Below are positions 1-48,088 of a stretch of DNA of 64,000 nt, piece after piece (the first letter of the stretch is position 1; each line of letters opens with the position of its first letter). The stretch is from the IMG/VR virus record IMGVR_UViG_3300047546_003009; one strand, 5' to 3'. Made by a program: the position numbers and the translations under genes. The stretch comes from a virus (taxonomy: Duplodnaviria > Heunggongvirae > Uroviricota > Caudoviricetes). The notes under the pieces are model-generated. The model was not told the DNA's origin. It saw only the letters and a program-made list of their open reading frames with translations, and made no database searches.

Positions 1-311
1 TCTGACTCATCAGTCATTAAAGCTAGCATTGCAAGAACGTCATTAGGATCAAAACCAATATCTGAGTCAATAAACATTAGATGTGTTGCATTTGACCGCA
101 TAAATTCATCAACACAGTAGTTACGAGCTCGGGTGATTAGCGATTCATTAAAGAGGAAGTATAGCTGAAGCTGGATTTGATACTTTGCACAAATGGCAGC
201 AAGATCAGCAATTGATCGTGTGTACATACCTGCACACTGTCCACCATACATTGGTGTGGCGACAAACAGCTTTCGTTTTTGTAGTTCAGAAAGTTCAACT
301 TTTAGTTCCAT
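1..311 (-). CDS. GT-A-fold glycosyltransferase-like protein, 5' part (runs off the left edge; absent from ORF track)
   Basis: Manual translation from ATG at 311: MELKVELSELQKRKLFVATPMYGGQC...LFNESLITRARNYCVDEFMRSNATHLMFIDSDIGF; ATPMYGG, ESLITRARN and FIDSD (DxD) motifs are typical of phage GT-A proteins. Confidence 0.75.
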   Translation of the reverse strand, partial: MELKVELSELQKRKLFVATPMYGGQCAGMYTRSIADLAAICAKYQIQLQLYFLFNESLITRARNYCVDEFMRSNATHLMFIDSDIGFDPNDVLAMLALMTDES

Positions 312-314
312 GTT

Positions 315-809
315 TTAGACTCCGTATTTTTTATCATGTTCTTTACCAATACCATATGAACCTTCATATGATGAAAGTGATTCGGCATCAAACGAAAGAT
401 ACTGACCAATTCTTGTTCCTCGTTTGATCTTCATTGGACCGATAGTAACATGCATGACACCGGCCATCACACCATGATATCCCGAATCATACAAACCAGA
501 TGTAAGGAAAACACCGTTGCGATTTAGTGTTGAGCGAGTGATAACCCAACCAGCCTCGCCCTCGCCAACGTGAATAATGTTCTCCATAACAACTTCATAG
601 CTTCCAACCTTCAGGTTAAAATAGCCTTCTTCATCTGGTTGAATCTCGAGCGTGCCACGATGCTTTTTAGTGTTTTCATCGATGAGAAAAAGTTCTTCTC
701 TAATGTAAAATACTTTACCCAGCCGCAGATCAACTGCGTTTGGTTGGCTATCACCATCCTGGACATTGGTTAGTTTAGATTTAGAGCTGGGCCCCAGAAT
801 ATGTTTCAT
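315..809 (-). CDS. Trimeric dUTPase / dCTP deaminase family protein, probably a dUTPase
   Basis: QPNAVDLRL, RSTLNRNG, GLYDSGYHG motifs; likely start MKHILG at 809 (ORF track 824). Confidence 0.75.
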   Translation of the reverse strand: MKHILGPSSKSKLTNVQDGDSQPNAVDLRLGKVFYIREELFLIDENTKKHRGTLEIQPDEEGYFNLKVGSYEVVMENIIHVGEGEAGWVITRSTLNRNGVFLTSGLYDSGYHGVMAGVMHVTIGPMKIKRGTRIGQYLSFDAESLSSYEGSYGIGKEHDKKYGV

Positions 810-1083
810 TTTGTTCCTTTTCATTAATGTAGATCATCAAAATAATGTAGTGAATGGCCTTAAGAAGGTCTTTCTTATTCTTACCTTCTTTTTTACCATA
901 TCTCATCAGATATTTTAGAGCCGTATCGCGCGCGGTTGTTTCAAGTGAACCACAAGCTTCCCAAATATCAATAACCTGCGAACCTTTAGACTCAGCTACG
1001 TAATGTTGGTTGTACGTAGAGTTAACATAATCGGTTATCTGCTTGAGGATGTTATCCTCGTCATAGTTGTATTTCATCTTCAC
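781..1083 (-). CDS. DUF3310 (SaV-like / T7 gp1.7-like nucleotide kinase domain) protein
   Basis: YNQHY...VID...ALKYLMRYGKKEG.NKKDLLKAIHY matches the DUF3310 pattern HY..ID..KY..R..KK..DL.KA..Y. Confidence 0.7.
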   Translation of the reverse strand: MKMKYNYDEDNILKQITDYVNSTYNQHYVAESKGSQVIDIWEACGSLETTARDTALKYLMRYGKKEGKNKKDLLKAIHYIILMIYINEKEQNETYSGAQL

Positions 1084-1084
1084 C

Positions 1085-1942
1085 TCATTCCTTTATCTTG
1101 GTGTTAATATAGTCGAGATTTCTCTGAATAATCTTTTTGTTATTATCCCCCGACTTGAAAGAGAAATCAACCTCTTTCTCAAATTTACCGTTAACTAACC
1201 CAGTAGGTGAATTATCAAACTGAATACCATTTAGACCACACCAAATTGCTGCACTAGAGTCCCATGAGAAGATGTTTTTACTGAATCGTTTAAGAAGGTC
1301 AATTTCATTGGGTCCATCTACCATACCAAGACAATGAAACTTCTTATAGGCTCTTGAATCCTTGAGGATACCAAGTCTTTCCATAGTATTGAATACTGTG
1401 AAGCGTGAAAGGAATCGTTGCAGCTTATACGTATCACTACGTGACTCAATACTTTGTTTCTCGTCAATACCCAAAGCAATAGGACATCCGAGAATTGACA
1501 ACCCAATTAGTTTAATTGGTTGGTCAAGTGCCCACTCAATACCCTGAAGATAACCATCAAAATCACCGAGCTTACTCTGAGGAACGAAGAATGCTTGAAA
1601 TCCAGCATCAATAATATCTGGAAGCATTTTATCGCCAGCTTCAACCGTCTTCGTCCAATCCTCGCGTGGATAGTCGGACATAACAATACAATCAGCCTTA
1701 CAGCGCTTACCCATCGCAATAAGTTTAGATGAATCGTACATTGGTCGACCCTGCTTAAACATTTCAAACGCAGAGTTATCCATAATCTTATACATGCCGT
1801 CATCTAAGTTAGCATAGAAGTCAGCATATTCAGGATCAGACTCGACAAGATGAGCGAGAATTAAATGAGCGTCGTTGTAGTCACTGTATTTGCTAAGATA
1901 TTTTGTCGGTGATATGTGACAAAATTTGATTGGGTAGTTCAT
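1085..1942 (-). CDS. dpdA: TGT-fold 7-deazaguanine DNA transglycosylase (DpdA family, divergent)
   Basis: MDNSAFE (cf. DSGxF), VMSDYP, HCLG and SWDSSA (catalytic Asp) in TGT/DpdA order; clustered with folE/queD/queE. Confidence 0.7.
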   Translation of the reverse strand: MNYPIKFCHISPTKYLSKYSDYNDAHLILAHLVESDPEYADFYANLDDGMYKIMDNSAFEMFKQGRPMYDSSKLIAMGKRCKADCIVMSDYPREDWTKTVEAGDKMLPDIIDAGFQAFFVPQSKLGDFDGYLQGIEWALDQPIKLIGLSILGCPIALGIDEKQSIESRSDTYKLQRFLSRFTVFNTMERLGILKDSRAYKKFHCLGMVDGPNEIDLLKRFSKNIFSWDSSAAIWCGLNGIQFDNSPTGLVNGKFEKEVDFSFKSGDNNKKIIQRNLDYINTKIKE

Positions 1943-2310
1943 TCACTCTCCTCATTAAAATAAATTCTACAGCCGTTCTCATTATCCTCCGATACCTCGA
2001 TAACACAAATCCGGTTTGGGTATTTGACTTTGATATACAGGTTGTACAAGTCGTTTGCAATCATTTCACAAGACTTGTTATTAAGAAAACCCATCATGCC
2101 ATCAATGTATTGCTCAAGCTCTCTTTTAAACATGATAAATTCTACATCACGATCATCATGAAATACCTCAAGCTCCACTCTAAAATGAAAGATGTGTCGA
2201 TGTGGATAGCCTAGAAAGCTGACTGATTGGAGTTTAGGATCAGTTAGTGCTGCAGGGTAGCAGTGGATCCCTTCACGTTGAAATGTTACCCAAATAAATG
2301 AATTAATCAT
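1939..2310 (-). CDS. dpdL: QueD-like T-fold protein, putative CDG decarboxylase DpdL
   Basis: LGYPHRHIF fits LxxxHRHxF; EFIMFKR, SCEMIA, EVSEDNENG; SD AAGGAA supports start MINSFIW at 2310. Confidence 0.7.
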   Translation of the reverse strand: MINSFIWVTFQREGIHCYPAALTDPKLQSVSFLGYPHRHIFHFRVELEVFHDDRDVEFIMFKRELEQYIDGMMGFLNNKSCEMIANDLYNLYIKVKYPNRICVIEVSEDNENGCRIYFNEESE

Positions 2311-2683
2311 ATAGTTCCTTCGCAAGTCTCTTTGCATTACTAAAAACTTTTCTCACATACTGCTCATTGTATCCCTTATCAAGTATAAACATTTCTGTGA
2401 TACCTGACAACTGGTCAAAATAACCAGTTGGTGTTTGAAAGTAATCCTCGAGTCTAAAATCCTTGTAAAACATACATTGTAGCCATTTTTCGATATGAGC
2501 TACCCGACTACGAGCAACACCAGGATCAGCATGCTGTATGTATATATCATCCAAGATGGTGATGTTGTCAAATTTTTCATACTGACTGTCAGCAAACCTT
2601 TTTTCAGCGATAAACCACTTTGTGTGACCAATTTTATAGGCCACTTTACCGTCTTTTTCAAACTTAGCGAGATATACTTTCAT
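2303..2683 (-). CDS. GIY-YIG / T5orf172-like small endonuclease
   Basis: VYLAK...YKIGHT...KRF...IEKWL resembles GIY-YIG superfamily core; no C-terminal DNA-binding tail. Confidence 0.55.
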   Translation of the reverse strand: MKVYLAKFEKDGKVAYKIGHTKWFIAEKRFADSQYEKFDNITILDDIYIQHADPGVARSRVAHIEKWLQCMFYKDFRLEDYFQTPTGYFDQLSGITEMFILDKGYNEQYVRKVFSNAKRLAKELYD

Positions 2684-2686
2684 GAT

Positions 2687-2712
2687 AAAAAAAGAGCCGC
2701 TTTCGCGGCTCT
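2687..2712 (-). terminator. Rho-independent terminator
   Basis: Minus strand AGAGCCGC-GAAA-GCGGCTCT followed by a T-run. Confidence 0.85.
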
Positions 2713-2732
2713 ATTCTAGTTTACCGTTTTAA

Positions 2733-2975
2733 TTAACGGCCACCAAAGACGTCCTGGCCGCCAATAGCGTATGCCAGGCGAACCATTTCACGCGAAGGCT
2801 GACCCAGTTTGTAATGGGTGCCTTTGCTGTTGCGGTTGGTGTAGATGCTGTAACCTTCAGCACGAAGCTCAGAAATACGAGCTGACAGATTAGTGATACC
2901 AAACGTACGAGCTTGCTTGGTGGTAAGTTTACGGCCAGACTCGAGAACTTTAAGAATAGTATTGTATTGCGTCAT
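2733..2975 (-). CDS. Winged helix-turn-helix DNA-binding protein (HTH_36-like)
   Basis: LESGRKLTTKQARTFGITNLSARISELRAEGYSI; SD AGGAG 7 nt before ATG at 2975. Confidence 0.65.
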   Translation of the reverse strand: MTQYNTILKVLESGRKLTTKQARTFGITNLSARISELRAEGYSIYTNRNSKGTHYKLGQPSREMVRLAYAIGGQDVFGGR

Positions 2976-3032
2976 TGTCAATCTCCTAAAAATATAACAT
3001 TATTAAAATACTGGATTACACCAGCAGACCAC

Positions 3033-3061
3033 ACTTTACTACATTTTTTTATTATTGTCAA
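3033..3061 (-). promoter_or_regulatory. sigma70-type early promoter
   Basis: TTGACA-17 nt-TAAAGT upstream of the HTH gene. Confidence 0.6.
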
Positions 3062-3251
3062 CAGCTTGTTTTAATTTTTTTAATGCACTCATAGCCATTT
3101 TAACGATCCTAGGATGATCTTTCATCCTCAAAACATAGAACGGCCGCCCCTCGATATCTTCAACATCAATCAAATATGCTTCAAAATACTCACCAGACAC
3201 ATTATTAACAAAACCTGTTAGTATAGGTTTTGGCTTTTGTCGTTTTTTCAC
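3039..3251 (-). CDS. Hypothetical protein (70 aa)
   Basis: Overlaps the folE stop and fills the operon gap; no motif recognised. Confidence 0.6.
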   Translation of the reverse strand: MKKRQKPKPILTGFVNNVSGEYFEAYLIDVEDIEGRPFYVLRMKDHPRIVKMAMSALKKLKQAVDNNKKM

Positions 3252-3934
3252 AGCACATCTCTCTGCATCTTAACGTTGTTGTAAAATTCTGCTTTAACAC
3301 TATCGTTATGGAACAAACCATGAACAACAGCTGTCTGCGTCAGACTAGAATGAACCTCAACACCACGATGTTCCATACATCCATGCGTTGCTTGTATATA
3401 CACAGCAACGTTTTCTGTATCCGTTGCCTTCATGATCTCTTTTGCAATTTGATTAACGAGATCTTCTTGAAGCTGGCCACGACGTGCACACCACTGCGCA
3501 ATTCGAACATACTTTGAAAGACCGATAACTCGGCCAGTTGGAATAAGACCAATGTAAGCCACACCCTTAACAGGCTGGTGATGGTGTGAACACATAGATG
3601 TGATCTCAGCTCTTACAACAAGCATACCCTCGAATCGATCTGAACCCTCATTAGGGAATGAAGTAGCCTGAGGTGCAGGCTCGTATCGACCAGCCATTAA
3701 CTCATAGATATACATCTTTGCAAGACGTTTAGCTGTGTCGTACGAGTTGGGGTCTTCTGCAGTGTCGATAACAAGGCTTTCAAGAACACTTTGAAACTTT
3801 TCTTGTAGTTCTGCTACAAGCAGTTCTTTTTCACCTTGCTTAATAAAATCCGAAATGTTATCGCTGGCATGATAACGCCGACCAGCAAGAACAATACGGT
3901 CTCTAATCTGCTCTGAAATGGGTTTATTATTCAT
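3248..3934 (-). CDS. folE: GTP cyclohydrolase I
   Basis: SMCSHHHQP, GLSKYVRI, RGQLQEDL, HGCMEHRG motifs; likely start MNNKP at 3934. Confidence 0.95.
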   Translation of the reverse strand: MNNKPISEQIRDRIVLAGRRYHASDNISDFIKQGEKELLVAELQEKFQSVLESLVIDTAEDPNSYDTAKRLAKMYIYELMAGRYEPAPQATSFPNEGSDRFEGMLVVRAEITSMCSHHHQPVKGVAYIGLIPTGRVIGLSKYVRIAQWCARRGQLQEDLVNQIAKEIMKATDTENVAVYIQATHGCMEHRGVEVHSSLTQTAVVHGLFHNDSVKAEFYNNVKMQRDVL

Positions 3935-4151
3935 ACTGCTCCTCATGTGAATATACACCGTGCATCATATCGTTGTGGTATGATGCAACGTCTTTTTTAG
4001 CTTCATCAATTACACTGCGTTGATATGGAACAAAAAACGGACCAAAAACTTTAGTGAGGGTCTGCTCAACCTGTTCGTCACTGTATCCAGCGAGAATATA
4101 ATTCATAGCAGTATTGAGCATATCAATATACGCTTCTTTCATCTTACTCAT
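3927..4151 (-). CDS. Hypothetical protein (approx. 74 aa)
   Basis: SD GAAGGA before ATG at 4151; overlaps both neighbours. Confidence 0.55.
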   Translation of the reverse strand: MSKMKEAYIDMLNTAMNYILAGYSDEQVEQTLTKVFGPFFVPYQRSVIDEAKKDVASYHNDMMHGVYSHEEQYE

Positions 4152-4539
4152 AACGATCATCCTTCACCAGGTTAATGTGCTTGCATTTTCCATGAAATTT
4201 AAAACCAGTGCAACTGCACGAATAGTGATTGTTGCTCTTGCTTACAATATACTTCTGTCCTTTAGAACCTATAACAGGAAACTCTTGAAAGCTTGAGCTA
4301 CGACCACTAATTACCTTTATGTCGTGAATACGTTTGAACGAAATCATTGAGACTGGATAGTTGGAATCACCAGTTTCAATTGAAACATAATCAGCCTCAA
4401 GCCACTTCTCGTTTTGAACGACCTTTCCAACAATCTTACGAAATACAAAAGGTTGTTCTTTTGCCGTGAAAATGTAGTGGTTGGGTTGCTTTGTCGTAAG
4501 TTCGACAACAGAACCAACAGCAGGGATAAGTGTTTTCAT
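4144..4539 (-). CDS. SWIM zinc-finger protein
   Basis: C-terminal YSCSCTGFKFHGKCKHI (CxC-x7-CxH); start probably 4539, since the ORF-track start 4578 overlaps the promoter. Confidence 0.75.
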   Translation of the reverse strand: MKTLIPAVGSVVELTTKQPNHYIFTAKEQPFVFRKIVGKVVQNEKWLEADYVSIETGDSNYPVSMISFKRIHDIKVISGRSSSFQEFPVIGSKGQKYIVSKSNNHYSCSCTGFKFHGKCKHINLVKDDRYE

Positions 4540-4546
4540 GAAGTCC

Positions 4547-4575
4547 ATTATACATAAAAACCTGTTGTCGGTCAA
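4547..4575 (-). promoter_or_regulatory. sigma70-type early promoter
   Basis: TTGACC-17 nt-TATAAT. Confidence 0.8.
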
Positions 4576-4594
4576 CATCCACTAACTTGTTGAT

Positions 4595-5107
4595 TTACGA
4601 GAAAAGATCCTCACCCCACTCACGGTGGCCTTCCCGAAACGCCATATTTGCTTGTGTTTCGCGAACTTCAACACGGTAGCACCACAGACGTTCTGCTTCA
4701 CCTGGACCCCAGTAGTCAGGAATGTACACGCCGTTGACGTACTTGTACAGCATGTCTGCAAGACCTTCACAGCCCAGACGTGGCAGAATTGTTAGTTTTG
4801 CTATCTTACGACGTTCCATCTCTTTATACAGCTCGAGCTCCGGATCGTCTTGAGCTACAAGAAGAGTGTGGTCAAACTGATCTTCAAGAACAGCTTTAAG
4901 TTCTTTGAGACCACCATAGTCGGCTGCCCAATTACGAGCATCTAGGTTATTTGTTCCAAAGAAGAACTTCATTGAAAAGCTGTAACCATGAATTAGGTTA
5001 CAGTGTGAATCTGCCTTGTATTGTCTATAAGCACAAGGAAATGCATCAACGTATTCTTTCGTTGATGTGTATTTGTAAGTAATCGGTTGCATCATTTCTC
5101 CCACCAA
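4595..5107 (-). CDS. queD: 6-carboxy-5,6,7,8-tetrahydropterin synthase
   Basis: SHCNLIHGYS, DYGGLKELK..LEDQFDHTLL, GCEGLA, VEVRET T-fold motifs; true start probably a few codons downstream (MQPITY). Confidence 0.9.
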   Translation of the reverse strand: MVGEMMQPITYKYTSTKEYVDAFPCAYRQYKADSHCNLIHGYSFSMKFFFGTNNLDARNWAADYGGLKELKAVLEDQFDHTLLVAQDDPELELYKEMERRKIAKLTILPRLGCEGLADMLYKYVNGVYIPDYWGPGEAERLWCYRVEVRETQANMAFREGHREWGEDLFS

Positions 5108-5541
5108 AAGTTAACCCACTCGTTCGTTTTATCACGATCAATTAAACGACCGTAAAAATCAACAATAAAATCTTGCTGTGTGATATTGTAAATTAATGTC
5201 GTGAACCTAGTGTTGTGGTCCCTCGAGAATCCAATTTCTTCCTCAATCTCTCTCAATGTAAGACCTGTATCACAAATATCATCAACAAATAATGTTGGAA
5301 GATCTGGTTCGATAATCTCGTTTAGCTTTTGTTTGTCTTTAAACTCACCATCCCTTGTAGCCCATTGAAGAGGAATAAACGGACATCCAAACGTATGAGA
5401 TAAACATACCCCAGGAATCAACCCACCTCTACTAATACCAACAACACGGTGAGGTTTAAAATTACTTGCCCGTATTGAATGTGATATCTTGTATAGATCA
5501 TCACACATCATTATGTAGCTATATTCCATTACGTCCCCCAC
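5092..5541 (-). CDS. Type I phosphoribosyltransferase (xanthine/guanine PRT-like)
   Basis: VVGISRGGLIPG and PRPP-binding LFVDDICDTGLTL. Confidence 0.85.
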   Translation of the reverse strand: MGDVMEYSYIMMCDDLYKISHSIRASNFKPHRVVGISRGGLIPGVCLSHTFGCPFIPLQWATRDGEFKDKQKLNEIIEPDLPTLFVDDICDTGLTLREIEEEIGFSRDHNTRFTTLIYNITQQDFIVDFYGRLIDRDKTNEWVNFWWEK

Positions 5542-6392
5542 TCATTCTTAAACAATGGAACTTGAAGTCTATCACTATAACGAAGTCCATGCTTCATTGC
5601 TAATTCAGCCACTTTGCGATTGTTTAGTGCATACACAGATTCAACACCACCAACAGGCATTAGATAAACAGGCCCCGAAAATCCTCCATCTTTATACATC
5701 TCAACAACCTCTAGTGCTTCTTTACAATCTTCTTCTGTTGCAATCACAAACTTGAGGTATGTATAACCAACCGCTTGATATTGTTTGATGATTTCAGGAC
5801 GGATTGCCTCTTCTCTCTTCTCACCCGAAACAGAAAGCTTGGGCGAAACAGAAAAAGTCAGTTTATCCCAATCTTGCCCGTTGCGTGTAACTTGACCCCA
5901 CAGATAATCATAGAACTTGTCTTCAATGGGTTGAGTACCGTTAGTTTCAAATGTAATCTCTTTAAGATGTAGCATGTAAGGATGGCTAAGAAGATCCGGA
6001 TATGCCCGCTGCCATCCAAGAAGAGGTTCACCACCGGTGATCACAAGATGTTCATCTCGCCAACCTTTGTGAGGTAGCATTTCTTTTATCTGAGCTGCAA
6101 TCTCATCCGTGTCTAAAACAGGACTTAGATTTTTAAATGCAGGATGCCAGCTGGCATAGCTATCGCAACCAGTGCTGACAAGTGGAAGCTCCTTGTATGA
6201 TTTCCACTGCTTTGAATTCTTCTGTGTAACAGCAAGCTGCTCTGCTTCTACACTAAGTTCACCTTTTGGCATACCAAATCCTGCACACTTAAAGTTGCAA
6301 CCAAATGTGCGAAGGAATACAGAAGGAACACCCATATAGCGTCCTTCACCCTGAATCGAATAAAACAGTTCTGCTACTTTAATCTTAGACAT
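5529..6392 (-). CDS. queE: 7-carboxy-7-deazaguanine synthase (radical SAM)
   Basis: ELFYSIQGEG.Y.GVPSVFLRTFGCNFKC, split CxxxC...CD motif, ITGGEPLL, FETNGT, VSPKL; start MSKIKV at 6392. Confidence 0.95.
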   Translation of the reverse strand: MSKIKVAELFYSIQGEGRYMGVPSVFLRTFGCNFKCAGFGMPKGELSVEAEQLAVTQKNSKQWKSYKELPLVSTGCDSYASWHPAFKNLSPVLDTDEIAAQIKEMLPHKGWRDEHLVITGGEPLLGWQRAYPDLLSHPYMLHLKEITFETNGTQPIEDKFYDYLWGQVTRNGQDWDKLTFSVSPKLSVSGEKREEAIRPEIIKQYQAVGYTYLKFVIATEEDCKEALEVVEMYKDGGFSGPVYLMPVGGVESVYALNNRKVAELAMKHGLRYSDRLQVPLFKNEWGT

Positions 6393-6903
6393 ACCGTTCC
6401 TCTTTAATCTTACCACGTTCAATCATTTTCTTGTACTTCATTGCTCTCTCAAGATGGTATCTGTTTGCCTTTGAGGTAAAAACTATCCCATTCAAGTGAT
6501 CAAGTTCATGCAGGAAACAGCGAGCTGTAATACCATCAAATTTCATTGTTTCTGTATCACCATTGGGTTTGGTGAACCTAACCTTGATTGTTCGTGGGCG
6601 CTTTATTTTCAAAAATAGGTTTGGAAATGAAAGACATCCTTCGTCCATGAGGATCACATTGCTATTCGTTTGATCTACTATTCTAGGATTGAAACAAACA
6701 TATACAGGATTACAGCTAATTGCAAATACTCTGTAACGAAGACCTACTTGATTTGCCGACAGGCCCAACCCATTATTAGCTAACATTGTTTCTGTTAAGT
6801 TTTTTGCAAGCTCAATAGGATCACAAGGAGGGTTTGCAAAATCAAACAGAGGCATTTCCTCGCGGAGAATAGGATCATCAGATTTAACAAGACTGAGAAT
6901 CAT
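6385..6903 (-). CDS. def: Peptide deformylase
   Basis: GLGLSANQVG, EGCLS, HELDH motifs. Confidence 0.95.
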   Translation of the reverse strand: MILSLVKSDDPILREEMPLFDFANPPCDPIELAKNLTETMLANNGLGLSANQVGLRYRVFAISCNPVYVCFNPRIVDQTNSNVILMDEGCLSFPNLFLKIKRPRTIKVRFTKPNGDTETMKFDGITARCFLHELDHLNGIVFTSKANRYHLERAMKYKKMIERGKIKEERYV

Positions 6904-7118
6904 GTTTTCTTCAACCACGTTTTACCACAAACAAGACAGCTCATATGTGTTGTAGTTGTATTGGGGTCTTTATTTAATGGATTACCATATTTGTCGAATG
7001 TAGGAATCCAACCCAGGGCAGTGGTCATACTCATGCCTTGCTGCACTACACAATCTGTACGATCACAGTCTGGTGTAATGGGCTGAGCCTTTCCCACTTC
7101 GATTAGGAATTGTTTCAT
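6900..7118 (-). CDS. Hypothetical protein with four Cys (possible zinc ribbon)
   Basis: CDRTDC ... CLVCGKTW; overlaps gp46 stop and def start. Confidence 0.55.
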   Translation of the reverse strand: MKQFLIEVGKAQPITPDCDRTDCVVQQGMSMTTALGWIPTFDKYGNPLNKDPNTTTTHMSCLVCGKTWLKKT

Positions 7119-8830
7119 TTTGATATCCTCGAAAAGTTTTTAACTTTCTCAAACTTGATTACATTGACAAATTTATCAAACAATTGATCGCCTTTGTGCG
7201 ATATTATAAACGTATTATTATCTTTTGTCAACTGGTTGAGAATCTTCATAAATTCTTCTGTTCCGTTGTTATCTAAAGAGCTGTCAAAGACCTCATCCAT
7301 GATAAGGAGATTAGTAGAAGCACTGTTACGTAGTTTTGCAATTGCTCGCCATGTGAAAAGCAAAGCAAGGTCAATTCGCATTTTTTCGCCTTCAGAGAAG
7401 CTAGCATATGTAAACTCGTCCCTAAATCTAGATTTAATCACTTCTTCAAAATTTTCATTTAACTCAAAATTAACAAAGAAGTCCATTGCTGCAAGATATT
7501 TGTTAATCAGTTTGTTCATAATCGGAACGTACTGTTTAATTATCTTTGTCTTGATCCCAGTATCCTTTAACAACAAGGCTGCGACATCCAACACTGCTTT
7601 TTGTTGCACCAACTTCTCTTTCTCTAGCTGGTGTTCTTCCAACTCTTTCTGCAAAGCACTGAGGTTATTTGTTTGGTTTTCTTCAGCTGTATTATCAGTC
7701 TGTAGCTGCTCAATTTCCTTCTCTAAACTCTGTATGAACTGTTTCCACGTTGATACTTCAACATTGTGGTTAGATATCTTTTGGTCTATCTCGCTAATCT
7801 GCTCTTCTATTTGTTCTATTTCAGATTCACGTTGTTTCAGCTGATCAATTCGTGCGTTCAATTCAATAATTGCTGCTGCAACAGTAACAACAGTGTCCTT
7901 TCCCTTACGCGTGATAACATCTTTGTGTTCTTGTGCTATTTGCTGTCTACACGTTGGACAATTGTCGTTACTTTCGAAAAAGTTAACATCGTGCTCGTGC
8001 TTGTTCTTCTTGCTTGTTAAATCATGTTTTAGTTGTTCGTGCTTTTTAATACTTTTTTGTATTTTGTTTTTATCAACAATTAAATCAAGAAGACTTTGTT
8101 TTTGAGTATTTAAACTATTAACAACTTCTGCTGTGTGAGAACATTTTGTTATGTAATCGTTAACTTTTATTTGCTTTTGATTAACAAGATCAGCGTTGTT
8201 TATTCTTAGTGACTCGAGATGCTCTTTGTGTATCTTAATTTTTTCTTCTGTAAGATTGATGCTGTAACCAACATCTGTAATATTTGTCTTATTGGTTGCA
8301 ATCTTGTCTTTCAACAAAACATTCATCTTCGAAAAGATCTCAATATCAAGCAAGTCCTCAATAATTTCTCTTCGGTTTGCAGCAGACAGTTGCATAAACG
8401 GAGTAAACGATGCTGAACCCAGTATCACAATTTGATTGAACGATTTGTGATTGAGCTTAAGTATCTGCTTTTCAAGCATCTCTTGATACTCTTTTGAATC
8501 TGCATCCTGATTCAAAAGCTGACCGTCAACAAGCACCTCAAAAATGTTTGGTTTGATTCCACGCTTGATTAGGTAGTTCTTTTTACCAATAGAAAACTCA
8601 ACTTGAACCTCGGCATTTTTTCTATTGATAGCATTAACAAGCTGTCCCTTATTAATGTTTCTAAATGGCTTGCCATAGAGTGCAAACGATAGAGCATCAA
8701 GAATAGTAGATTTGCCTGCACCATTCTCACCTACAATTAGAACGGCAGAATGGGAACTCAAATCAATCTCTGTGAAATGAGCTCCCGTCGATAAGAAGTT
8801 TTTCCATCTAATTTTTTTGAAAACAATCAT
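7115..8830 (-). CDS. gp46: Recombination endonuclease ATPase subunit (SbcC/Rad50-like)
   Basis: Walker A GENGAGKS, CPTC zinc hook, FSEGE signature, Walker B LIMDEVFD, ISHK. Confidence 0.97.
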   Translation of the reverse strand: MIVFKKIRWKNFLSTGAHFTEIDLSSHSAVLIVGENGAGKSTILDALSFALYGKPFRNINKGQLVNAINRKNAEVQVEFSIGKKNYLIKRGIKPNIFEVLVDGQLLNQDADSKEYQEMLEKQILKLNHKSFNQIVILGSASFTPFMQLSAANRREIIEDLLDIEIFSKMNVLLKDKIATNKTNITDVGYSINLTEEKIKIHKEHLESLRINNADLVNQKQIKVNDYITKCSHTAEVVNSLNTQKQSLLDLIVDKNKIQKSIKKHEQLKHDLTSKKNKHEHDVNFFESNDNCPTCRQQIAQEHKDVITRKGKDTVVTVAAAIIELNARIDQLKQRESEIEQIEEQISEIDQKISNHNVEVSTWKQFIQSLEKEIEQLQTDNTAEENQTNNLSALQKELEEHQLEKEKLVQQKAVLDVAALLLKDTGIKTKIIKQYVPIMNKLINKYLAAMDFFVNFELNENFEEVIKSRFRDEFTYASFSEGEKMRIDLALLFTWRAIAKLRNSASTNLLIMDEVFDSSLDNNGTEEFMKILNQLTKDNNTFIISHKGDQLFDKFVNVIKFEKVKNFSRISK

Positions 8831-9306
8831 AGGCTAAACCATTGTGGTGTTTCACGTTTTTTCCATGTAGCAAAGCTAGCCTTTGCACCCTTGTAATAAT
8901 TAATATACGATTGTACTGATGATCGTGTTTTGTAATCATCAGGCATGGCTGGTGGAGGCTCAGTAAACGAACCAGAAGGAATTGATTGTGGAAGCTTTTT
9001 CAATATATCGACCAGACCACTTGACTCACATTTGTGGGTCTTTTCATAGCGATACGTATACTCGCTGCACAATTCAACAAGAAGTGACCAAAGCCATGTG
9101 TAGTTACTGGATGTCTGACGACACCAGATAGCAGACGGGTGATTTTTATGTGTGGCTTTGTACACAGGAAGAGTAGTATCAACATCAAGAATTCTATGTG
9201 CTGTTGATAGAAGCTGTGCACTTTCAAGTATCATCTTAACAACGTGTTTATCGCAATGATACTGCGCACATTGCTGTGGGTCTTTGCTCAGATAGAAAAT
9301 GTTCAT
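8827..9306 (-). CDS. denV: Pyrimidine-dimer DNA glycosylase-like protein
   Basis: MNIFYLSKDP..CAQYHCDKHVVKMILESAQLLSTAH, YKATHKNHPS family motifs. Confidence 0.75.
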   Translation of the reverse strand: MNIFYLSKDPQQCAQYHCDKHVVKMILESAQLLSTAHRILDVDTTLPVYKATHKNHPSAIWCRQTSSNYTWLWSLLVELCSEYTYRYEKTHKCESSGLVDILKKLPQSIPSGSFTEPPPAMPDDYKTRSSVQSYINYYKGAKASFATWKKRETPQWFSL

Positions 9307-9308
9307 AA

Positions 9309-10367
9309 TTACTCGTTGGTTAAAGCTTCATTATATAATGATCTCATTAAAACTTCAAGTTTTTTCTTATCCGTTTGAATTTGCATTTGATGAATGTATT
9401 TGTTGAGAATTGTTAGCGTATCTTCAGCCTCGTTAACTATATCGCTATCATCCTCAATATCAGAGTGAAAGTGGTCATCTACAACCTGAATATCAACTGC
9501 GCCCGCTTTTTCTAGCTTATCGATCAGAGTATCAAACCAGAATGGATTTGTTTTATTCCTTACAACCACTTTCACAATTGTGTTCTTATAGTAACTAAAA
9601 TCGTCAAGAAGAACGTCTTCCATTGTCTTGTCTAGATCATCATAATGATGTTTCACAAACATATTAAATGGATTGTGTACGAAAGTTAGCTCTCTTGTCT
9701 CTGTATCGAGGATATGGAATCCTTTATCGTCTCCGTAATCCGACCACGTCATTTCATATGGGGTTCCACAATATGTAATGTTTCCTTTTGTGGATTTGTG
9801 GTGGTAATGACCAGATAGAACCAAATCAAACTTATTAAAAATGTTTTTATCTAGACCGTGATCAATAACCGTTCCCTTGTACATTTCAAAGCCTTGAATC
9901 TCAAAATGACCTACACAGATTTGTGCCTCTGTGTTTTGCATGGCCTCAAAACACATCTTTTCATTTTCCGGACATATCCAGGGAATAAACAATATAGGTA
10001 TGCCGTCTATAACAAGTGTTTCGGGATATACTATAGGAGTTATGTTGTTGTATTTTTCTAACAACAGACTCAACGAATTAACGTTATTTGTATTCTTGTA
10101 GAATGTGTCGTGGTTTCCTACAAGTACAATGCTTTTGTAGTTGTAATTTAACCTATCAAAAAAGTATGTTTTGACTGACTTAAGTGTATTAAAGTTTACG
10201 TACTTTCGTCTATCAAACACATCTCCAAGCTGGATTACATATTCAATATTATTCTTTTCAAGATAGGGAAAGAACACCTCGTCGTAGAAACGCTTGAAGT
10301 GTTCATTAAATATAGGACTGTCATTACGAGCCCCAAAGTGAGTATCACCAAGTACCGCAATTTTCAT
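9309..10367 (-). CDS. gp47: Recombination endonuclease nuclease subunit (SbcD/Mre11-like)
   Basis: GDTHFG, LGDVFDRR, GNHD, GHFE, SGHYH metallophosphoesterase motifs. Confidence 0.96.
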   Translation of the reverse strand: MKIAVLGDTHFGARNDSPIFNEHFKRFYDEVFFPYLEKNNIEYVIQLGDVFDRRKYVNFNTLKSVKTYFFDRLNYNYKSIVLVGNHDTFYKNTNNVNSLSLLLEKYNNITPIVYPETLVIDGIPILFIPWICPENEKMCFEAMQNTEAQICVGHFEIQGFEMYKGTVIDHGLDKNIFNKFDLVLSGHYHHKSTKGNITYCGTPYEMTWSDYGDDKGFHILDTETRELTFVHNPFNMFVKHHYDDLDKTMEDVLLDDFSYYKNTIVKVVVRNKTNPFWFDTLIDKLEKAGAVDIQVVDDHFHSDIEDDSDIVNEAEDTLTILNKYIHQMQIQTDKKKLEVLMRSLYNEALTNE

Positions 10368-10370
10368 TAT

Positions 10371-10907
10371 CTATTCATCCAAAAATATTTCGATTCCTTT
10401 CTTTTTCTTCTTTTTAGATTTCTTATCTTTCAGACTATCCTCAAAAGCTTTGATAAAGTCAACAGATTGTTGATCAACTTCTGTGTTAACAAACGTGTGA
10501 TCATCACCCTCCATTTGACTAATTAGATCATCAAACAACAGAGAGTTCTCTAATGATTTGTGCTTAACATACTGTTGCTTCTTCTCTTTAAGAATTCTTC
10601 TGAGAAATGCATAGTAAATGATCTGTGTGAAATAAGCGAAAGGATTAGTAGACTTTGCAGGGTCAAAATTGTCAAAATAGCTGATGCAATTTTCAATTCC
10701 ATCACTAATCATTTCATCTCTAAACGAATAGTTGATGAAGTTTGGCTTGTGCGATAATCGTTCTGCAATCATCATAATACACTCACCAACATAGTTTGGA
10801 ATAGGAGGCTTGTCAAGTTTCTTACGCTTTGCCTCTATACAATCATTTTTATATTGTACAATACATTCATATAACTGCTTATTATCTACATAATGATTAT
10901 CAGCCAT
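10371..10907 (-). CDS. gp55: Late-transcription sigma factor
   Basis: HYVDNK, YSFRDEMISDGIENC, NPFAYFTQIIYYAFLRRI.KEKKQ. Confidence 0.96.
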   Translation of the reverse strand: MADNHYVDNKQLYECIVQYKNDCIEAKRKKLDKPPIPNYVGECIMMIAERLSHKPNFINYSFRDEMISDGIENCISYFDNFDPAKSTNPFAYFTQIIYYAFLRRILKEKKQQYVKHKSLENSLLFDDLISQMEGDDHTFVNTEVDQQSVDFIKAFEDSLKDKKSKKKKKKGIEIFLDE

Positions 10908-27644: not shown

Positions 27645-28349
27645 CTAATCCTCTAATTTATCGTTTCTTTTTGTAGTTCTACCATCAAATGGTCGGGCTT
27701 TTATCGTTGTATCCGTTTTATCAGACATTACATCATACGCATACAAACCCTGGTGTGTAATGTTGAATAGGTCAGCTCTCAGCATAATATCCAAAGGTGC
27801 ACATATACCCATTTTTATTACGTGGGAAATTAAATTTTTTGCCATGGCTGGGTCAATACTATATGCATGTGCTCTACAAATAAAGTGATAATTTGGTCCT
27901 TCAGAAGCGTGTGGTGGAATTGGATATATCTTCCAACCTTGTTGAGCCCACTCAGAACCACCAAGATAAACTATTGAATTGTAGCTTTGATGTTGCTCGA
28001 ATCTTTCAACCATAACAGTATCGTGCTCAAGAATTACAATTGGTTTATCAATCTTCGCACAGTGAACCCACAAACTAACGTGGCTCAGAGCACAAGCAAC
28101 CTCGCCCCTTGTTAAATAATGATCAGTAATTTTTAGCATGTTCATCACACTACAATCTTTACTGTGATCAGGAACAATTATTGGACTGTTTAAACCATTA
28201 TATGCATCCCACACTTTGTAAGGCATTCCAACACGTTTACACGATTCTTGACACTGTGCTGAATATTTTAGTGAATTATCGTTATTTTTTAGCGTTATAA
28301 TATACGCCGACTCAACGTTTATATCGTTACTTCTAAATAAGCTTAACAT
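27645..28349 (-). CDS. Glycosyltransferase, GT25-like
   Basis: AYIITLKN, GEVACALSH..LW..C, IVILEHD, AHAY.I, PLD. Confidence 0.8.
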   Translation of the reverse strand: MLSLFRSNDINVESAYIITLKNNDNSLKYSAQCQESCKRVGMPYKVWDAYNGLNSPIIVPDHSKDCSVMNMLKITDHYLTRGEVACALSHVSLWVHCAKIDKPIVILEHDTVMVERFEQHQSYNSIVYLGGSEWAQQGWKIYPIPPHASEGPNYHFICRAHAYSIDPAMAKNLISHVIKMGICAPLDIMLRADLFNITHQGLYAYDVMSDKTDTTIKARPFDGRTTKRNDKLED

Positions 28350-28951
28350 AGTTTCACAAATGCTGTTTGAAGCATGTCAGGTAACCAAATTGGTTTTACC
28401 TTATGCCAGTTACATTGAATAAAGTTCTCAATCGCAACACGTGGATTCATCTGGGCACTGTAAGTACCGTTATTATCTTTAAATCTCCACTCGGTTGCAT
28501 CATCACAGAGAATAACACCACCCACCTTCAACATTTTAAATGATAATACCAGGTCCATCAGAACGGCACTGGCAAAATGATCCCCATCAATGTATACAAA
28601 TTCGGGTTGAACATTCTGGTTGATAAGGTCAATTAACCCATCCTCAGATTTTTTCTTGATGTAGTGAATGTTTTTTGTCGAACATTGAGAAATGTTTTTT
28701 TGGAATCTTACCCCGGCCGCAGCCATGTCCTCATGAATATCTACACTATCACTGTGAGGATCAATTGCGTAAATGTCTAGATGGGGATTATACTGATGCA
28801 GAACATCACCCATCCAACACGTTGTGTAACCCTCATAGCATCCAATCTCAACAATGGTTGAGGGGATGCCAAACGTGTTTATGATGTGGGAAATGTTCTT
28901 TTGAGTGGATTCAGGATTAAATGCAACAGTAAACTCATAATTTTTGGTCAT
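28343..28951 (-). CDS. Class I SAM-dependent methyltransferase (Methyltransf_24-like)
   Basis: IVEIGCYEGYTT, YAIDP, FVYIDGDH, LKVGGVILCDD. Confidence 0.85.
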   Translation of the reverse strand: MTKNYEFTVAFNPESTQKNISHIINTFGIPSTIVEIGCYEGYTTCWMGDVLHQYNPHLDIYAIDPHSDSVDIHEDMAAAGVRFQKNISQCSTKNIHYIKKKSEDGLIDLINQNVQPEFVYIDGDHFASAVLMDLVLSFKMLKVGGVILCDDATEWRFKDNNGTYSAQMNPRVAIENFIQCNWHKVKPIWLPDMLQTAFVKLC

Positions 28952-35975: not shown

Positions 35976-36542
35976 CTATCTCCACTTGGGACCATCAAAC
36001 CAAACAGCTAACGATCTTCTTAATCCTCGAGTCACAGGAAGCGCTGCGTGTGGTATAAACGAAGGGAAGAAAATAACAGTCCCTCGTTGTCGCAGTGCTT
36101 CTGGTATTGGTGGGGAAAGAGATAATTCATACAACTCTAAATCACCACCATCATACTCTGAAGGGTCCGACAACTGAACCACACAAGTAAGCTTTCTGTG
36201 ATAATATGGGTCGTTATTAATCCAAAAAACATCGTGGTGTTTTTTATATTCGCCCTGATCATCAGCTGAATATTCTGCTAGCTGAATATAATTCAGCTTT
36301 TGAATATGAAAACCAAACCACTCATCATTAGCCTGCAATGCCATCTTCCACAAGCTATCAAACAAATAGGTAAAAGTGCTATCTGTTTTTTGGATGAATC
36401 TGACTTTGCTTCGTCGATGTTGGTGATTGATGTTGCCTCCTGTTGTTCCATCCTGCACAGGAAGCTCCAACCCTTTTTCTATAATATAATCGCATTGCTC
36501 TGGTGTAAACGCAGAGCTAAAATAACACCACTCACCTCTCAT
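35976..36542 (-). CDS. 2OG-Fe(II) oxygenase (prolyl 4-hydroxylase-like)
   Basis: YKKHHD (HxD), RKLTCVVQLS, YDGGDL, FPSFIPH, VTRGLRRSLAVW. Confidence 0.9.
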   Translation of the reverse strand: MRGEWCYFSSAFTPEQCDYIIEKGLELPVQDGTTGGNINHQHRRSKVRFIQKTDSTFTYLFDSLWKMALQANDEWFGFHIQKLNYIQLAEYSADDQGEYKKHHDVFWINNDPYYHRKLTCVVQLSDPSEYDGGDLELYELSLSPPIPEALRQRGTVIFFPSFIPHAALPVTRGLRRSLAVWFDGPKWR

Positions 36543-36550
36543 GATGTTAT

Positions 36551-36703
36551 TTACTCAGATTTATCTTCTGCTTTGATTTGTGGCTGAACCTGAATTTCTA
36601 TTTCTCGGATTACCTGAAACACGGTTTCATAGGGCATTTTACCCATTGATGCCATAATAACGTTGAGTTGATCGAGAGTCAGTTCAAGTTTTAAATTATT
36701 CAT
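36551..36703 (-). CDS. Small helical protein (50 aa; below the ORF-track cutoff)
   Basis: Manual translation MNNLKLELTLDQLNVIMASMGKMPYETVFQVIREIEIQVQPQIKAEDKSE; SD GGAG upstream; fills the gap exactly. Confidence 0.75.
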   Translation of the reverse strand: MNNLKLELTLDQLNVIMASMGKMPYETVFQVIREIEIQVQPQIKAEDKSE

Positions 36704-46490: not shown

Positions 46491-48077
46491 CTATGCTACA
46501 CGTTGAATTAAGTGAACCCAGAATGGGTTACTACCCTCACCAATACCAGGAGCATAACCACTGAAACCGCGAAGTCTCCAGGTTCCCGATAATGCTGACC
46601 CTCCACTACCAGCCGCGTAGCTTGTAGCCATATAAGAACCCCCAATATTTGCGGGATAATAATTACTTGAACCCACATAAGGAGTTACTGTACCTGTAAG
46701 ATCTCCAGCACTTGTATTTTCTCGCCACAATGTCAGGTATGTCCCCACAGCATAATCGGTTGTACTTGATGAAGAACTATTATCTATTGCGACCGTTCCC
46801 GTAGGTCCTGTTGGGCCTGTTGGCCCTGGAGGACCACTTGGTCCTGTTGCACCAGTAGGTCCGGTTGGCCCTGGAGGACCACTTGGTCCTGTAGGGCCTG
46901 TTGCACCAGTTGGTCCTGTAGGTCCAGGTGCACCAGTTGGTCCTGTGGGCCCGGTTGGTCCCGTTGGTCCCGTTGGTCCTGCTGCTAGTGCGATTGATGT
47001 TGCACTTGTTACACGACCAGTTGTATCAATAGCAAACTGAGCGTGATGTGTATTATTTCCATATGTTGCTGCAGAAACACCTGAAGCTGGCAGCCTTGAT
47101 GAACTCAATGTACCAGTTGAAATGTTTGTAGCATTTGATGCATATGTAACAGCATTTGAGTACGCGCTTGTTGCAGCGGATTGTGCTGATGCTGCTCTTG
47201 TGTTTGCATCAACCGCGACATCGTATGCAGTTTTGACAGCGTTTGGTGTTGCTGCGTAAATAGACGTGCTAGTGTTTGACACCGAGTCGAGCAGTATTAC
47301 AGCACCATTTGCTGTTGTGTTTGACTGCGGTAATCTTGCAGGGCTTACCGTTCCCGATGAAAGGTTTGTCGCGTTAGTATAGTAAGAAGCAGGCTGTCCA
47401 CCAAGGTTTGTTGTATTGTTAGCTGTATATGATTGACCAGTAAAGACTGTTGAATTTATCGTATTACCACCAACACTAACGGTTGTTGTATTAATTGATA
47501 TCGATGCACCAACAGAAACAACATTGGAAGCCTTGAGATCGTAAGCACTAACAGACTGCCATCTATTTGTGGTATTTCCCAACAAGTATAAGTTGTCTGT
47601 AACAGGAATATAATCACCGTTAGCAGAACCAGAAATAGAGAAGTTGCCAACAACTATAAGATCATTTGCAACGCGGATGTTTGTGACGTTAGCCGTTCCA
47701 GAAATTACAGCTCCATTGCCAGTAAACAGACCTGTTACTGATAGAGTATTTGCAATAGTTACGGCACCATTGACTGTAACTGTGTTACCAAGCGTCGTTG
47801 TGCTTAAAACACTTAGTGTGCCGTTTGTTGTAATACCACTACCAGAAACTGTGGTGTTTGATGTCGAGTTACCAATTGTAACTGAGCTGATAGTAATAAC
47901 AGCATTCTGTGTTGAATTACCAACAAACAAAGACGAGGTGTTTAGAGAAACATTAGCGCCAACATTAACAGCAGAAGAAATATTTGCTGTTCCTGTGACT
48001 TGTAAATTGCCAGATGCTACATTTGCACCATTGATAACCTCTAAACCATTTTCTACCTTGAATACTGAATTAGCCAT
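46491..48077 (-). CDS. Collagen-like tail fibre
   Basis: N/S/T-rich N-terminal half, 20 G-X-Y triplets, short C-terminal globular tip (GTWRLRG). Confidence 0.8.
46800..46979 (-). repeat. Collagen G-X-Y repeat (13 GPT, 2 GAT, 2 GPS, 2 GPP, 1 GAP)
   Basis: Read from the translation; includes an exact 29-bp direct repeat at 46819-46847 and 46864-46892. Confidence 0.95.
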
Positions 48078-48088
48078 TCTTTTCTACT

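Follow-up and report, generated by a model that had tools for sequence, protein, structure and literature searches.

The 64,000-nucleotide stretch of viral DNA analysed here (IMG/VR record IMGVR_UViG_3300047546_003009, Caudoviricetes; hereafter the window) very probably carries a DpdA3/DpdL module, a set of genes whose sequences predict that 7-deazaguanine (DG) is placed in the phage DNA as dDG or a close derivative. By analogy we consider dDG itself the best prediction of the end product, because QueC was not found in the window and because phage phiST offers a precedent. This phage, which encodes FolE, QueD, QueE, DpdL and DpdA3, is the only characterised precedent, and its dDG replaces all dG (302,000 dDG per million nucleotides and no dG) (PMC10516641). 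The phiST-type dDG module as such was therefore known already (PMC10516641); what is new here is an abundant T4-like form of it, a strict rule for the gene that follows the transglycosylase gene, fusions between the two, and a recurrent pattern of neighbouring genes. The fuller statement, a phiST-type dDG module in which guanine would be exchanged at the level of nucleotides, has in our estimation an even chance of being right.

A first-pass annotation of this DNA had listed folE, queD and queE together with genes for a T-fold protein with an HRH motif, a protein with the fold of tRNA-guanine transglycosylase (TGT), a phosphoribosyltransferase (PRTase), a DUF3310 protein, a dUTPase and a GT-A glycosyltransferase (GT), and all of these were found, each on the minus strand (Table 1). 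Judging from their families, FolE, QueD and QueE would convert GTP into 7-carboxy-7-deazaguanine (CDG), and without QueC the pathway would end at this compound. The window QueD has a CxxxHGY variant motif that, in an alignment, it has in common with QueD of phiST and ACP17, while the QGEG motif and Cys42, Cys46 and Cys86 of QueE were invariant in a comparison with QueE of phiST, ACP17, PA5oct and BUCT-ZZ01. The QueE start is probably the ATG at 6392. The annotation had also reported that the window contains no queC, queF or gat-queC, which was borne out by three kinds of search: the SGGxDS PP-loop motif occurred in none of the six frames of the window, tblastn with three phage QueC/Gat-QueC sequences gave no match in it, and the Pfam models of QueC and QueF had no match among the 56 window open reading frames (ORFs) scanned. 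Of five complete relatives, four likewise gave no QueC, and QueF and a canonical TGT were missing from all five. Two kinds of doubtful match came up in the relatives. Weak QueF matches in the relatives fell below the cut-off, the one in Ahp1 lying inside the annotated folE, which fits a cross-match between T-fold proteins; and a QueC-like ORF of 245 aa in relative G001 (L084, ~182 kb) matched the C-terminal half of the model only, had no SGGxDS and was ~165 kb away from the module.

In addition to the separate canonical QueD, the window encodes a QueD paralogue of the DpdL type. The signature of DpdL given by Cui et al. 2023 is LxxxHRHxF, which replaces the CxxxHGH of QueD (PMC10516641). In the window protein it takes the form LGYPHRHIF, aligned with LSLNHRHLF of phiST and LGSPHRHLF of ACP17, and residues H46, R47, H48 and F50 were invariant in 21 relatives. 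Identity to phiST DpdL (CGPG_00067) was 33% (BLASTP E 3e-20) and identity to the ACP17 homologue 51% in the alignment (54.5% by tblastn), and the AlphaFold2 (AF2) model (pLDDT 90) had E. coli QueD as its top PDB match (4ntk, TM 0.67/0.73). The stop codon of the gene overlaps the start of the transglycosylase gene (ATGA). The combination that goes with DpdL, with DpdA, FolE, QueD and QueE present and QueC not, was found in the window and in four of the five complete relatives. On these sequence grounds, we classify the product as a DpdL-type protein, the proposed CDG decarboxylase. As a side observation, the DpdL-bearing phages ACP17 (L087), PA5oct (L086) and BUCT-ZZ01 (L088) have one or two large unannotated genes directly upstream of dpdL, one of which in ACP17 gives weak GT1/GT4 glycosyltransferase matches.

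The protein encoded next, of 285 aa, is predicted to be a member of the DpdA3 family, because a profile of its own family finds the DpdA3 proteins of phiST, immuto 2-6A and CP220. The match to phiST DpdA3 (CGPG_00065), to which the window protein is ~25% identical, had a probability of 96.4% and an E value of 1.3e-9 in hhalign and an E value of 3.7e-8 in hmmsearch; immuto gp206 (1.1e-11) and CP220 CPT_0056 (1.5e-5) were matched as well. The same profile found nothing in ACP17, PA5oct or BUCT-ZZ01, and tblastn-level similarity between phiST DpdA3 and the window transglycosylase was absent. The AF2 model (pLDDT 93) compared well with Z. mobilis TGT (VIA comparison, Z 17.9, root-mean-square deviation 3.0 over 240 residues). 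In a Foldseek search of the PDB the top 42 matches were TGT or ArcTGT, and DpdA 7ui4, a DNA preQ0 insertase, was matched too. In BFVD the second-best match (TM 0.78/0.85) was an uncharacterised phiST protein that, at 259 aa, has the same length as CGPG_00065. The family escapes the Pfam TGT model, the window protein has no Pfam match at all, and searching the PDB with the family profile found no solved TGT or DpdA; with this sequence link missing, the tie to the superfamily runs through the fold and phiST DpdA3 only. Three aspartates, D55 (in DNSAFE), D90 (SDYP) and D228 (WDSS), were invariant in 36 sequences. D55 and D228 align with aspartates of phiST DpdA3, while a correspondence with Asp102/156/280 of TGT is one of motif order only. 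An argument from acidity against DNA binding was dropped: the median pI of the DpdA3-like proteins is 5.4, but that of the DNA-acting DpdA1 of phage 9g is 5.6. With these profile assignments and the homology to phiST, the annotation's combination of a queC-less CDG pathway with a DpdL-type and a DpdA-family protein stands.

The family is large, with 1,755 clusters at 90% identity, 1,074 representatives at 50% identity and 473 IMG/VR loci. In 80 loci the common order was gp47, gp46, peptide deformylase, QueE, (PRTase), QueD, FolE, DpdL, DpdA3-like, a variable gene, dCTP deaminase (DCD)-fold gene, GT and gp45. The site of the module, between gp46/peptide deformylase and gp45, is fixed in a large clade of T4-like phages that are uncultured, and in HTVC008M, which is T4-like but lacks the module, it holds unrelated genes.

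We then surveyed the variable position in the 79 related loci with room for a gene after the DpdA3-like gene. A T4 gp1-type deoxynucleoside monophosphate (dNMP) kinase (PF21448, phrog_139) was found in 47 of them and a DUF3310 gene in 32, so that this position, which we call the kinase slot, was never empty of both and never held both (79/79). The slot was followed by the dUTPase/DCD-fold gene in all 79 loci. In addition, DUF3310 was found five times as a C-terminal fusion partner of the DpdA3-like protein, in RHph_I1_18 and in four separate metagenomic clusters at 50% identity. A predicted complex of the DpdA3-like and DUF3310 proteins had a score of 0.00, below the mark, which weighs neither way on binding. 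T7 gp1.7 has no Pfam domain other than DUF3310 (PF11753; residues 122-184, 4.5e-23), and a DUF3310 alignment matched gp1.7 residues 123-184 in hhalign (E 2e-4). T7 gp1.7 is a nucleotide kinase for dTMP and dGMP (PMC7693777; PMC10700055). As only the C-terminal third of gp1.7, a single conserved domain, is aligned, we did not class the window protein as a gp1.7 kinase.

The dUTPase-fold protein of the window contains the GxxDxGYxG core motif of the trimeric dUTPase/DCD superfamily, as judged by its profile match, and its best PDB match was 9w59, a 'probable dUTPase' (1.7e-8), aligned through GLYDSGYHG. Its start is a probable Met6. By eye, the position of the deaminase glutamate, ~10 residues past the motif aspartate, is a valine, which would make the protein a hydrolase and not a deaminase. 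Homologues among 50,697 phage records were found in exactly the four that carry a DpdA3-like gene.

The PRTase gene is packed between queE and queD. Its product has a type I fold, a Gpt-like length and the phosphoribosyl pyrophosphate (PRPP) motif VDDICDTG, and matched the P. horikoshii purine PRTase 1vdm (2e-8), S. solfataricus GpT-2 and E. coli XGPRT in the PDB; its substrate was left unassigned because the scores are far under the NCBIfam equivalog cut-offs. The gene was found in 16 of 43 related loci, each time directly after queE. Homologues among the same 50,697 phages were restricted to phiST-like and immuto-like phages, which have DpdA3 and 100% replacement, and to PA5oct-like jumbo phages and BUCT-ZZ01, which bear DpdL; at E 1e-3 none was found in CP220, BSTP10, RHph_I1_18 or Ahp1. 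The simplest role for the enzyme would be the recycling of released guanine to GTP for FolE, and ribosylation of DG or CDG is possible. Since the gene is optional, in contrast to the ever-present DpdA3-like gene, we do not regard it as an obligatory entry step. The idea of the first-pass annotation that accessory genes extend the known pathway thus held for the PRTase, DUF3310 and dUTPase-fold genes, on the strength of position, fusions and phyletic pattern. It failed for the GT-A gene, which has homologues in 62 phage records, among them the module-less DLP_6, Cr30, phiM12 and many cyanophages. T4-like phages of proteobacteria and cyanobacteria that lack the module commonly carry genes of this type, and the one in the window is probably unrelated to it.

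Other lineages with DpdA3 show comparable neighbourhoods. In phiST the order is MazG-like pyrophosphatase, DpdL, CGPG_00066 and DpdA3, and CGPG_00066 (L002:9320-9799) matched the AAA_18 P-loop kinase-like domain (PF13238, 9.4e-7, just above the cut-off); Cui et al. 2023 had set this gene aside because homologues were missing from other phages (PMC10516641). Immuto 2-6A has a run of 'hydrolase', DpdA3, DpdN, 'thymidylate kinase' and QueF, with a PRTase within the cluster. In CP220 (L102:4543-7036, CPT_0055-CPT_0057) an HD+P-loop protein, DpdA3 and a 180-aa P-loop protein form a three-gene islet among tail genes. Bacillus phage BSTP10, which has Gat-QueC, combines a 'thymidylate kinase' (a weak P-loop/dNK match), a DpdA3-like gene and PolI, with no hydrolase seen beside the DpdA3-like gene. 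A metagenomic PolA phage (L089) has the N-domain of a dATP/dGTP diphosphohydrolase (PF18909, 5e-30) with QueD, QueE, DpdL and a DpdA3-like gene, and no kinase was recognised in this cluster. In a T4-like locus with QueC (L091), DUF3310 lies two genes upstream of the DpdA3-like gene and DCD adjoins, which suggests that this lineage makes a different 7-deazaguanine end product from the same basic gene set. A further TGT-like paralogue with a weaker match (E 1.3e-5) lies in the stretch L091:3590-6798. By contrast, neither a kinase nor a dNTPase gene adjoins DpdA1 of phage 9g.

Because hydrolase, DpdA3 and kinase genes adjoin one another repeatedly, with non-homologous fillers in each lineage, and because of the fusions, we lean towards a pre-replicative swap at the nucleotide level over the published post-replicative route, a preference drawn from gene context only. 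The literature searched yielded no pre-replicative or dGMP-level 7-deazaguanine pathway. In this scheme, and following the phiST precedent, the DpdL-type paralogue would strip the carboxyl group from CDG to give DG, and the DpdA3-family enzyme would exchange guanine for DG. The module-specific dUTPase-fold hydrolase would convert dGTP to dGMP, at once purging dGTP and supplying substrate, and the DpdA3-like enzyme would act on the free deoxynucleotide (dGMP + DG → dDGMP + guanine). The protein of the kinase slot, DUF3310 here and a gp1-type dNMP kinase in most relatives, would help to phosphorylate dDGMP, after which the phage polymerase would make fully substituted DNA. The optional Gpt-like PRTase would return the freed guanine to GMP and GTP, feeding FolE. 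A wider reading is that all DpdA3 proteins, those of phiST, CP220 and immuto 2-6A included, are deoxynucleotide base exchangers and not DNA transglycosylases, a view to which we give slightly less than an even chance. On this reading, dGMP and a 7-deazaguanine derivative would yield a modified dNMP and guanine, and DpdA3 would form a cassette of three enzymes together with a hydrolase that removes dGTP and a kinase that acts on dNMPs. If true, every fully 7-deazaguanine-replaced phage genome would be built pre-replicatively by the polymerase, and the failure of DpdA3 and DpdL to work when reconstituted on their own would be accounted for.

Several points weigh against the nucleotide route. To our knowledge, the characterised TGT and DpdA relatives all act on polymers (tRNA or DNA) and none on a mononucleotide. 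The pockets of dUTPase-fold enzymes usually accommodate pyrimidines, so that dGTP hydrolysis by the window protein is speculative. The DUF3310 protein of the window (100 aa) lacks the full-length gp1.7 architecture (~196 aa), any kinase activity of the DUF3310 domain is putative, the 64-kb window has no gp1-type kinase, and the phage genome is known from this window alone. Elsewhere, the kinase calls in BSTP10 and phiST are weak P-loop matches, and four further distant DpdA3-like contexts had no kinase by Pfam, with DCD within 4 kb in two of the four. The 79 loci are not independent, since their synteny was inherited in one clade; about six lineages are independent. Finally, the published DpdA3 model is post-replicative, and CDG decarboxylation by DpdL is a proposal demonstrated for no member (PMC10516641).

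According to that published model, the DpdA3-like enzyme would swap G for DG in DNA that has already been replicated, and the kinase-type, dUTPase-fold and PRTase genes would be ordinary supply genes, the PRTase at most salvaging guanine. The first-pass annotation likewise took DpdA to exchange guanine in DNA, an activity demonstrated for no DpdA3 member (PMC10516641), and the gene context described above points rather to nucleotides as the substrate. We regard this as a serious candidate, if one clearly short of even. It is what homology to the polymer-acting DpdA and TGT enzymes would lead one to expect, kinases and dUTPases are frequent in phage replication modules, and the distant contexts without a recognisable kinase agree with it. 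According to Cui et al. 2023, moreover, no 7-deazaguanine phage is without a DpdA gene, from which they conclude that the modification is post-replicative (PMC10516641). The model leaves unexplained, however, the strict choice between two genes in the slot (79 of 79 loci), the five DUF3310 fusions, the isolated islet of CP220 and the confinement of the dUTPase-fold subfamily to phages with a DpdA3-like gene, and the module-less HTVC008M has none of these genes at the site. Equally unexplained are a complete replacement of dG that was seen in all tested DpdA3 phages, while other DpdA types reach ≤30%, and the failed reconstitution of DpdA3 with DpdL in E. coli (PMC10516641). That reconstitution was made without kinase or hydrolase partners, and we count it in favour of the nucleotide route.

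A second alternative gives the central role to the PRTase, which would join CDG or DG to PRPP, with kinases and ribonucleotide reductase then leading to dDGTP and the TGT-fold protein acting as an auxiliary, for instance in mopping up residual G. Such a scheme is modelled on tubercidin and toyocamycin biosynthesis. The place of the gene inside the CDG operon directly after queE, the restriction of its phage homologues to DpdA3 or DpdL phages and the kinases adjoining the module all speak for it, but the PRTase is missing in 27 of the 43 related loci, no homologue was found at E 1e-3 in the four phages named above, and its closest solved relatives are ordinary 6-oxopurine PRTases; we consider this route improbable. 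Very unlikely, in turn, is an RNA target, with the TGT-fold protein modifying tRNA or the cluster boosting host queuosine precursors as an auxiliary metabolic set: TGT is a tRNA enzyme and folE, queD and queE are known as auxiliary genes in marine phages, but the window has no tRNA gene, the TGT-fold protein has no Zn subdomain and is linked by profile to DpdA3 from three phages with fully modified DNA, its DpdL partner is known solely from DNA-modifying phages, and without QueC there would be no preQ0 or preQ1 for queuosine.

Comparison with known systems places the window closest to phiST. Both have the five core functions without QueC, the DpdL signature and the QueD variant described above, and a Zn-less TIM barrel of ~260-285 aa in which the DN(S/G)A, PQ(S/G), H(C/F)LG and (W/T)DS motifs align. 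In both, a dNTP pyrophosphatase and a small protein (a P-loop protein in phiST) adjoin DpdL/DpdA3 and a Gpt-like PRTase is encoded in the genome. They differ in that the transglycosylase and DpdL have diverged to the identities given, the hydrolase is of the MazG type in phiST and has a dUTPase/DCD fold here, AAA_18 in phiST stands against DUF3310 or a gp1-type deoxynucleoside monophosphate kinase in the slot here, the phiST PRTase lies ~18 kb away whereas here it is inside the operon, and the module here sits at the fixed gp46-gp45 site of a T4-like myovirus. CP220 (dADG) and immuto 2-6A (fdPreQ1) are alike in having a DpdA3 found by the family profile, with kinase-like and phosphohydrolase genes adjoining it, and immuto 2-6A also in its PRTase inside the cluster. 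Their end products are different and neither has DpdL; immuto 2-6A has QueC, QueF and DpdN, and in CP220 the hydrolase joins an HD domain to a P-loop domain in one protein. DpdA1, DpdA2 and bacterial DpdA (phage 9g, Salmonella Dpd, 7ui4) share the TGT fold and are used with FolE, QueD and QueE, but they are larger, insert preQ0 or G+ at ≤30% of G and are accompanied by QueC or Gat-QueC. The proposed route itself resembles the pre-replicative base replacement of T4, where hydroxymethylcytosine (hmC) depends on the gp56 dCTPase, gp42 and the gp1 dNMP kinase, and of the Z-genome phages with MazZ/DatZ and PurZ. The proposed scheme has the same three parts, a dNTP hydrolase that clears the canonical dNTP and yields the dNMP, a converting enzyme and a phage dNMP kinase, and among relatives both a genuine kinase of the gp1 type (PF21448) and an N-domain of the MazZ type (PF18909) occur. 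The difference is that the converter here would be a TGT-fold base exchanger, unprecedented on a mononucleotide, and that the system is known from its genes alone.

The T4-like nature of the genome, likewise part of the first-pass annotation, was confirmed by gp23, gp20, gp19, gp15, gp5, gp25, gp46/47, UvsW, UvsY and TerL, the remainder of the window being a T4-type set of recombination and virion-structure genes. No cultured phage is close in DNA, every match to an 8-kb query being ≤80% identical and covering <10% of it. From 1 to 10,400 every gene lies on the minus strand, with close spacing. In the direction of transcription, the order is gp47, DenV-like glycosylase, gp46, a 72-aa ORF, peptide deformylase, QueE, PRTase, QueD, the weak SWIM protein, a 77-aa ORF, FolE, a 70-aa ORF, the winged-helix HTH_39 protein, the 126-aa ORF, the DpdL-type and DpdA3-like genes, DUF3310, the DCD/dUTPase-fold gene and the start of the GT-A-like gene.

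Table 1. Coordinates of the stretch and of the features discussed in the text.
Feature	Position	Strand	Details
Source stretch	64,000 nt	one strand	IMG/VR record IMGVR_UViG_3300047546_003009, Caudoviricetes
GT-A-like gene, 5' part	3-311, runs past window start	-	phrog_1574; GT2 E 0.014 on full-length homologue
dUTPase/DCD-fold nucleotidohydrolase	315-824	-	PF22769 5e-13; PF00692 5e-5
DUF3310 protein, 'kinase slot'	781-1083	-	PF11753 1e-6; phrog_480 3e-27; 100 aa
DpdA3-family TGT-fold transglycosylase (predicted)	1085-1942	-	285 aa, no Zn subdomain
DpdL-type QueD paralogue	1939-2337	-	LGYPHRHIF; phrog_17812 1e-32; 132 aa
126-aa protein, upstream of DpdL-like gene	2303-2683	-	no Pfam, PHROG or NCBIfam match
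82-aa winged-helix HTH_39 protein	2733-2981	-	PF14090 9e-11
FolE, GTP cyclohydrolase I	3248-3958	-	PF01227 2e-41; NF006824 1.5e-41
144-aa protein, weak SWIM zinc-finger match	4144-4578	-	PF04434 E 0.0018, below cut-off
QueD-like 6-carboxytetrahydropterin (CPH4) synthase	4595-5107	-	PF01242 1.8e-13; phrog_2389 1e-34
Gpt-like 6-oxopurine phosphoribosyltransferase	5092-5541	-	PF00156 4.5e-7; phrog_8995; 149 aa
QueE-like radical-SAM CDG synthase	5529-6422	-	phrog_2076 1e-55; partial TIGR QueE matches
Peptide deformylase	6385-6918	-	
gp46	7115-8830	-	
DenV-type pyrimidine-dimer glycosylase	8827-9306	-	
gp47	9309-10367	-	

The small genes interspersed in the module recur in only a subset of the relatives, the SWIM-match protein at the same place in ~12 related loci, the HTH_39 protein in ~15 and the 126-aa protein in ~14, and they may be regulatory or mobile. 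We also noted that gp46 is flanked by the peptide deformylase and the DenV-type glycosylase, and that the deformylase stays beside queE in most relatives. Further along the window, 27648-28951 (-) and 35979-36554 (-) encode a GT25 glycosyltransferase, a class I methyltransferase (Methyltransf_24) and a 2OG-Fe(II) oxygenase with neck, tail and fibre genes as neighbours, and 46494-48083 (-) encodes a fibre protein that has collagen triple-helix repeats as well as a phage tail-fibre repeat.

These observations are of value mainly for a hypothesis that can be tested, namely that DpdA3 systems act ahead of replication. The cassette of hydrolase, DpdA3 and kinase makes it possible to ask by experiment, and at little cost, what lets DpdA3 phages attain 100% replacement and what made reconstitution fail. 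If the nucleotide route is true, it would represent a new enzymatic activity in the TGT superfamily and would give enzymatic access to 7-deaza-dGTP analogues, which are of use in PCR and sequencing. As the family is common in environmental viromes, genomes fully substituted with 7-deazaguanine may be widespread in aquatic T4-like phages, which would have consequences for how they withstand restriction enzymes and other defences and for how viromes are sequenced and base-called.

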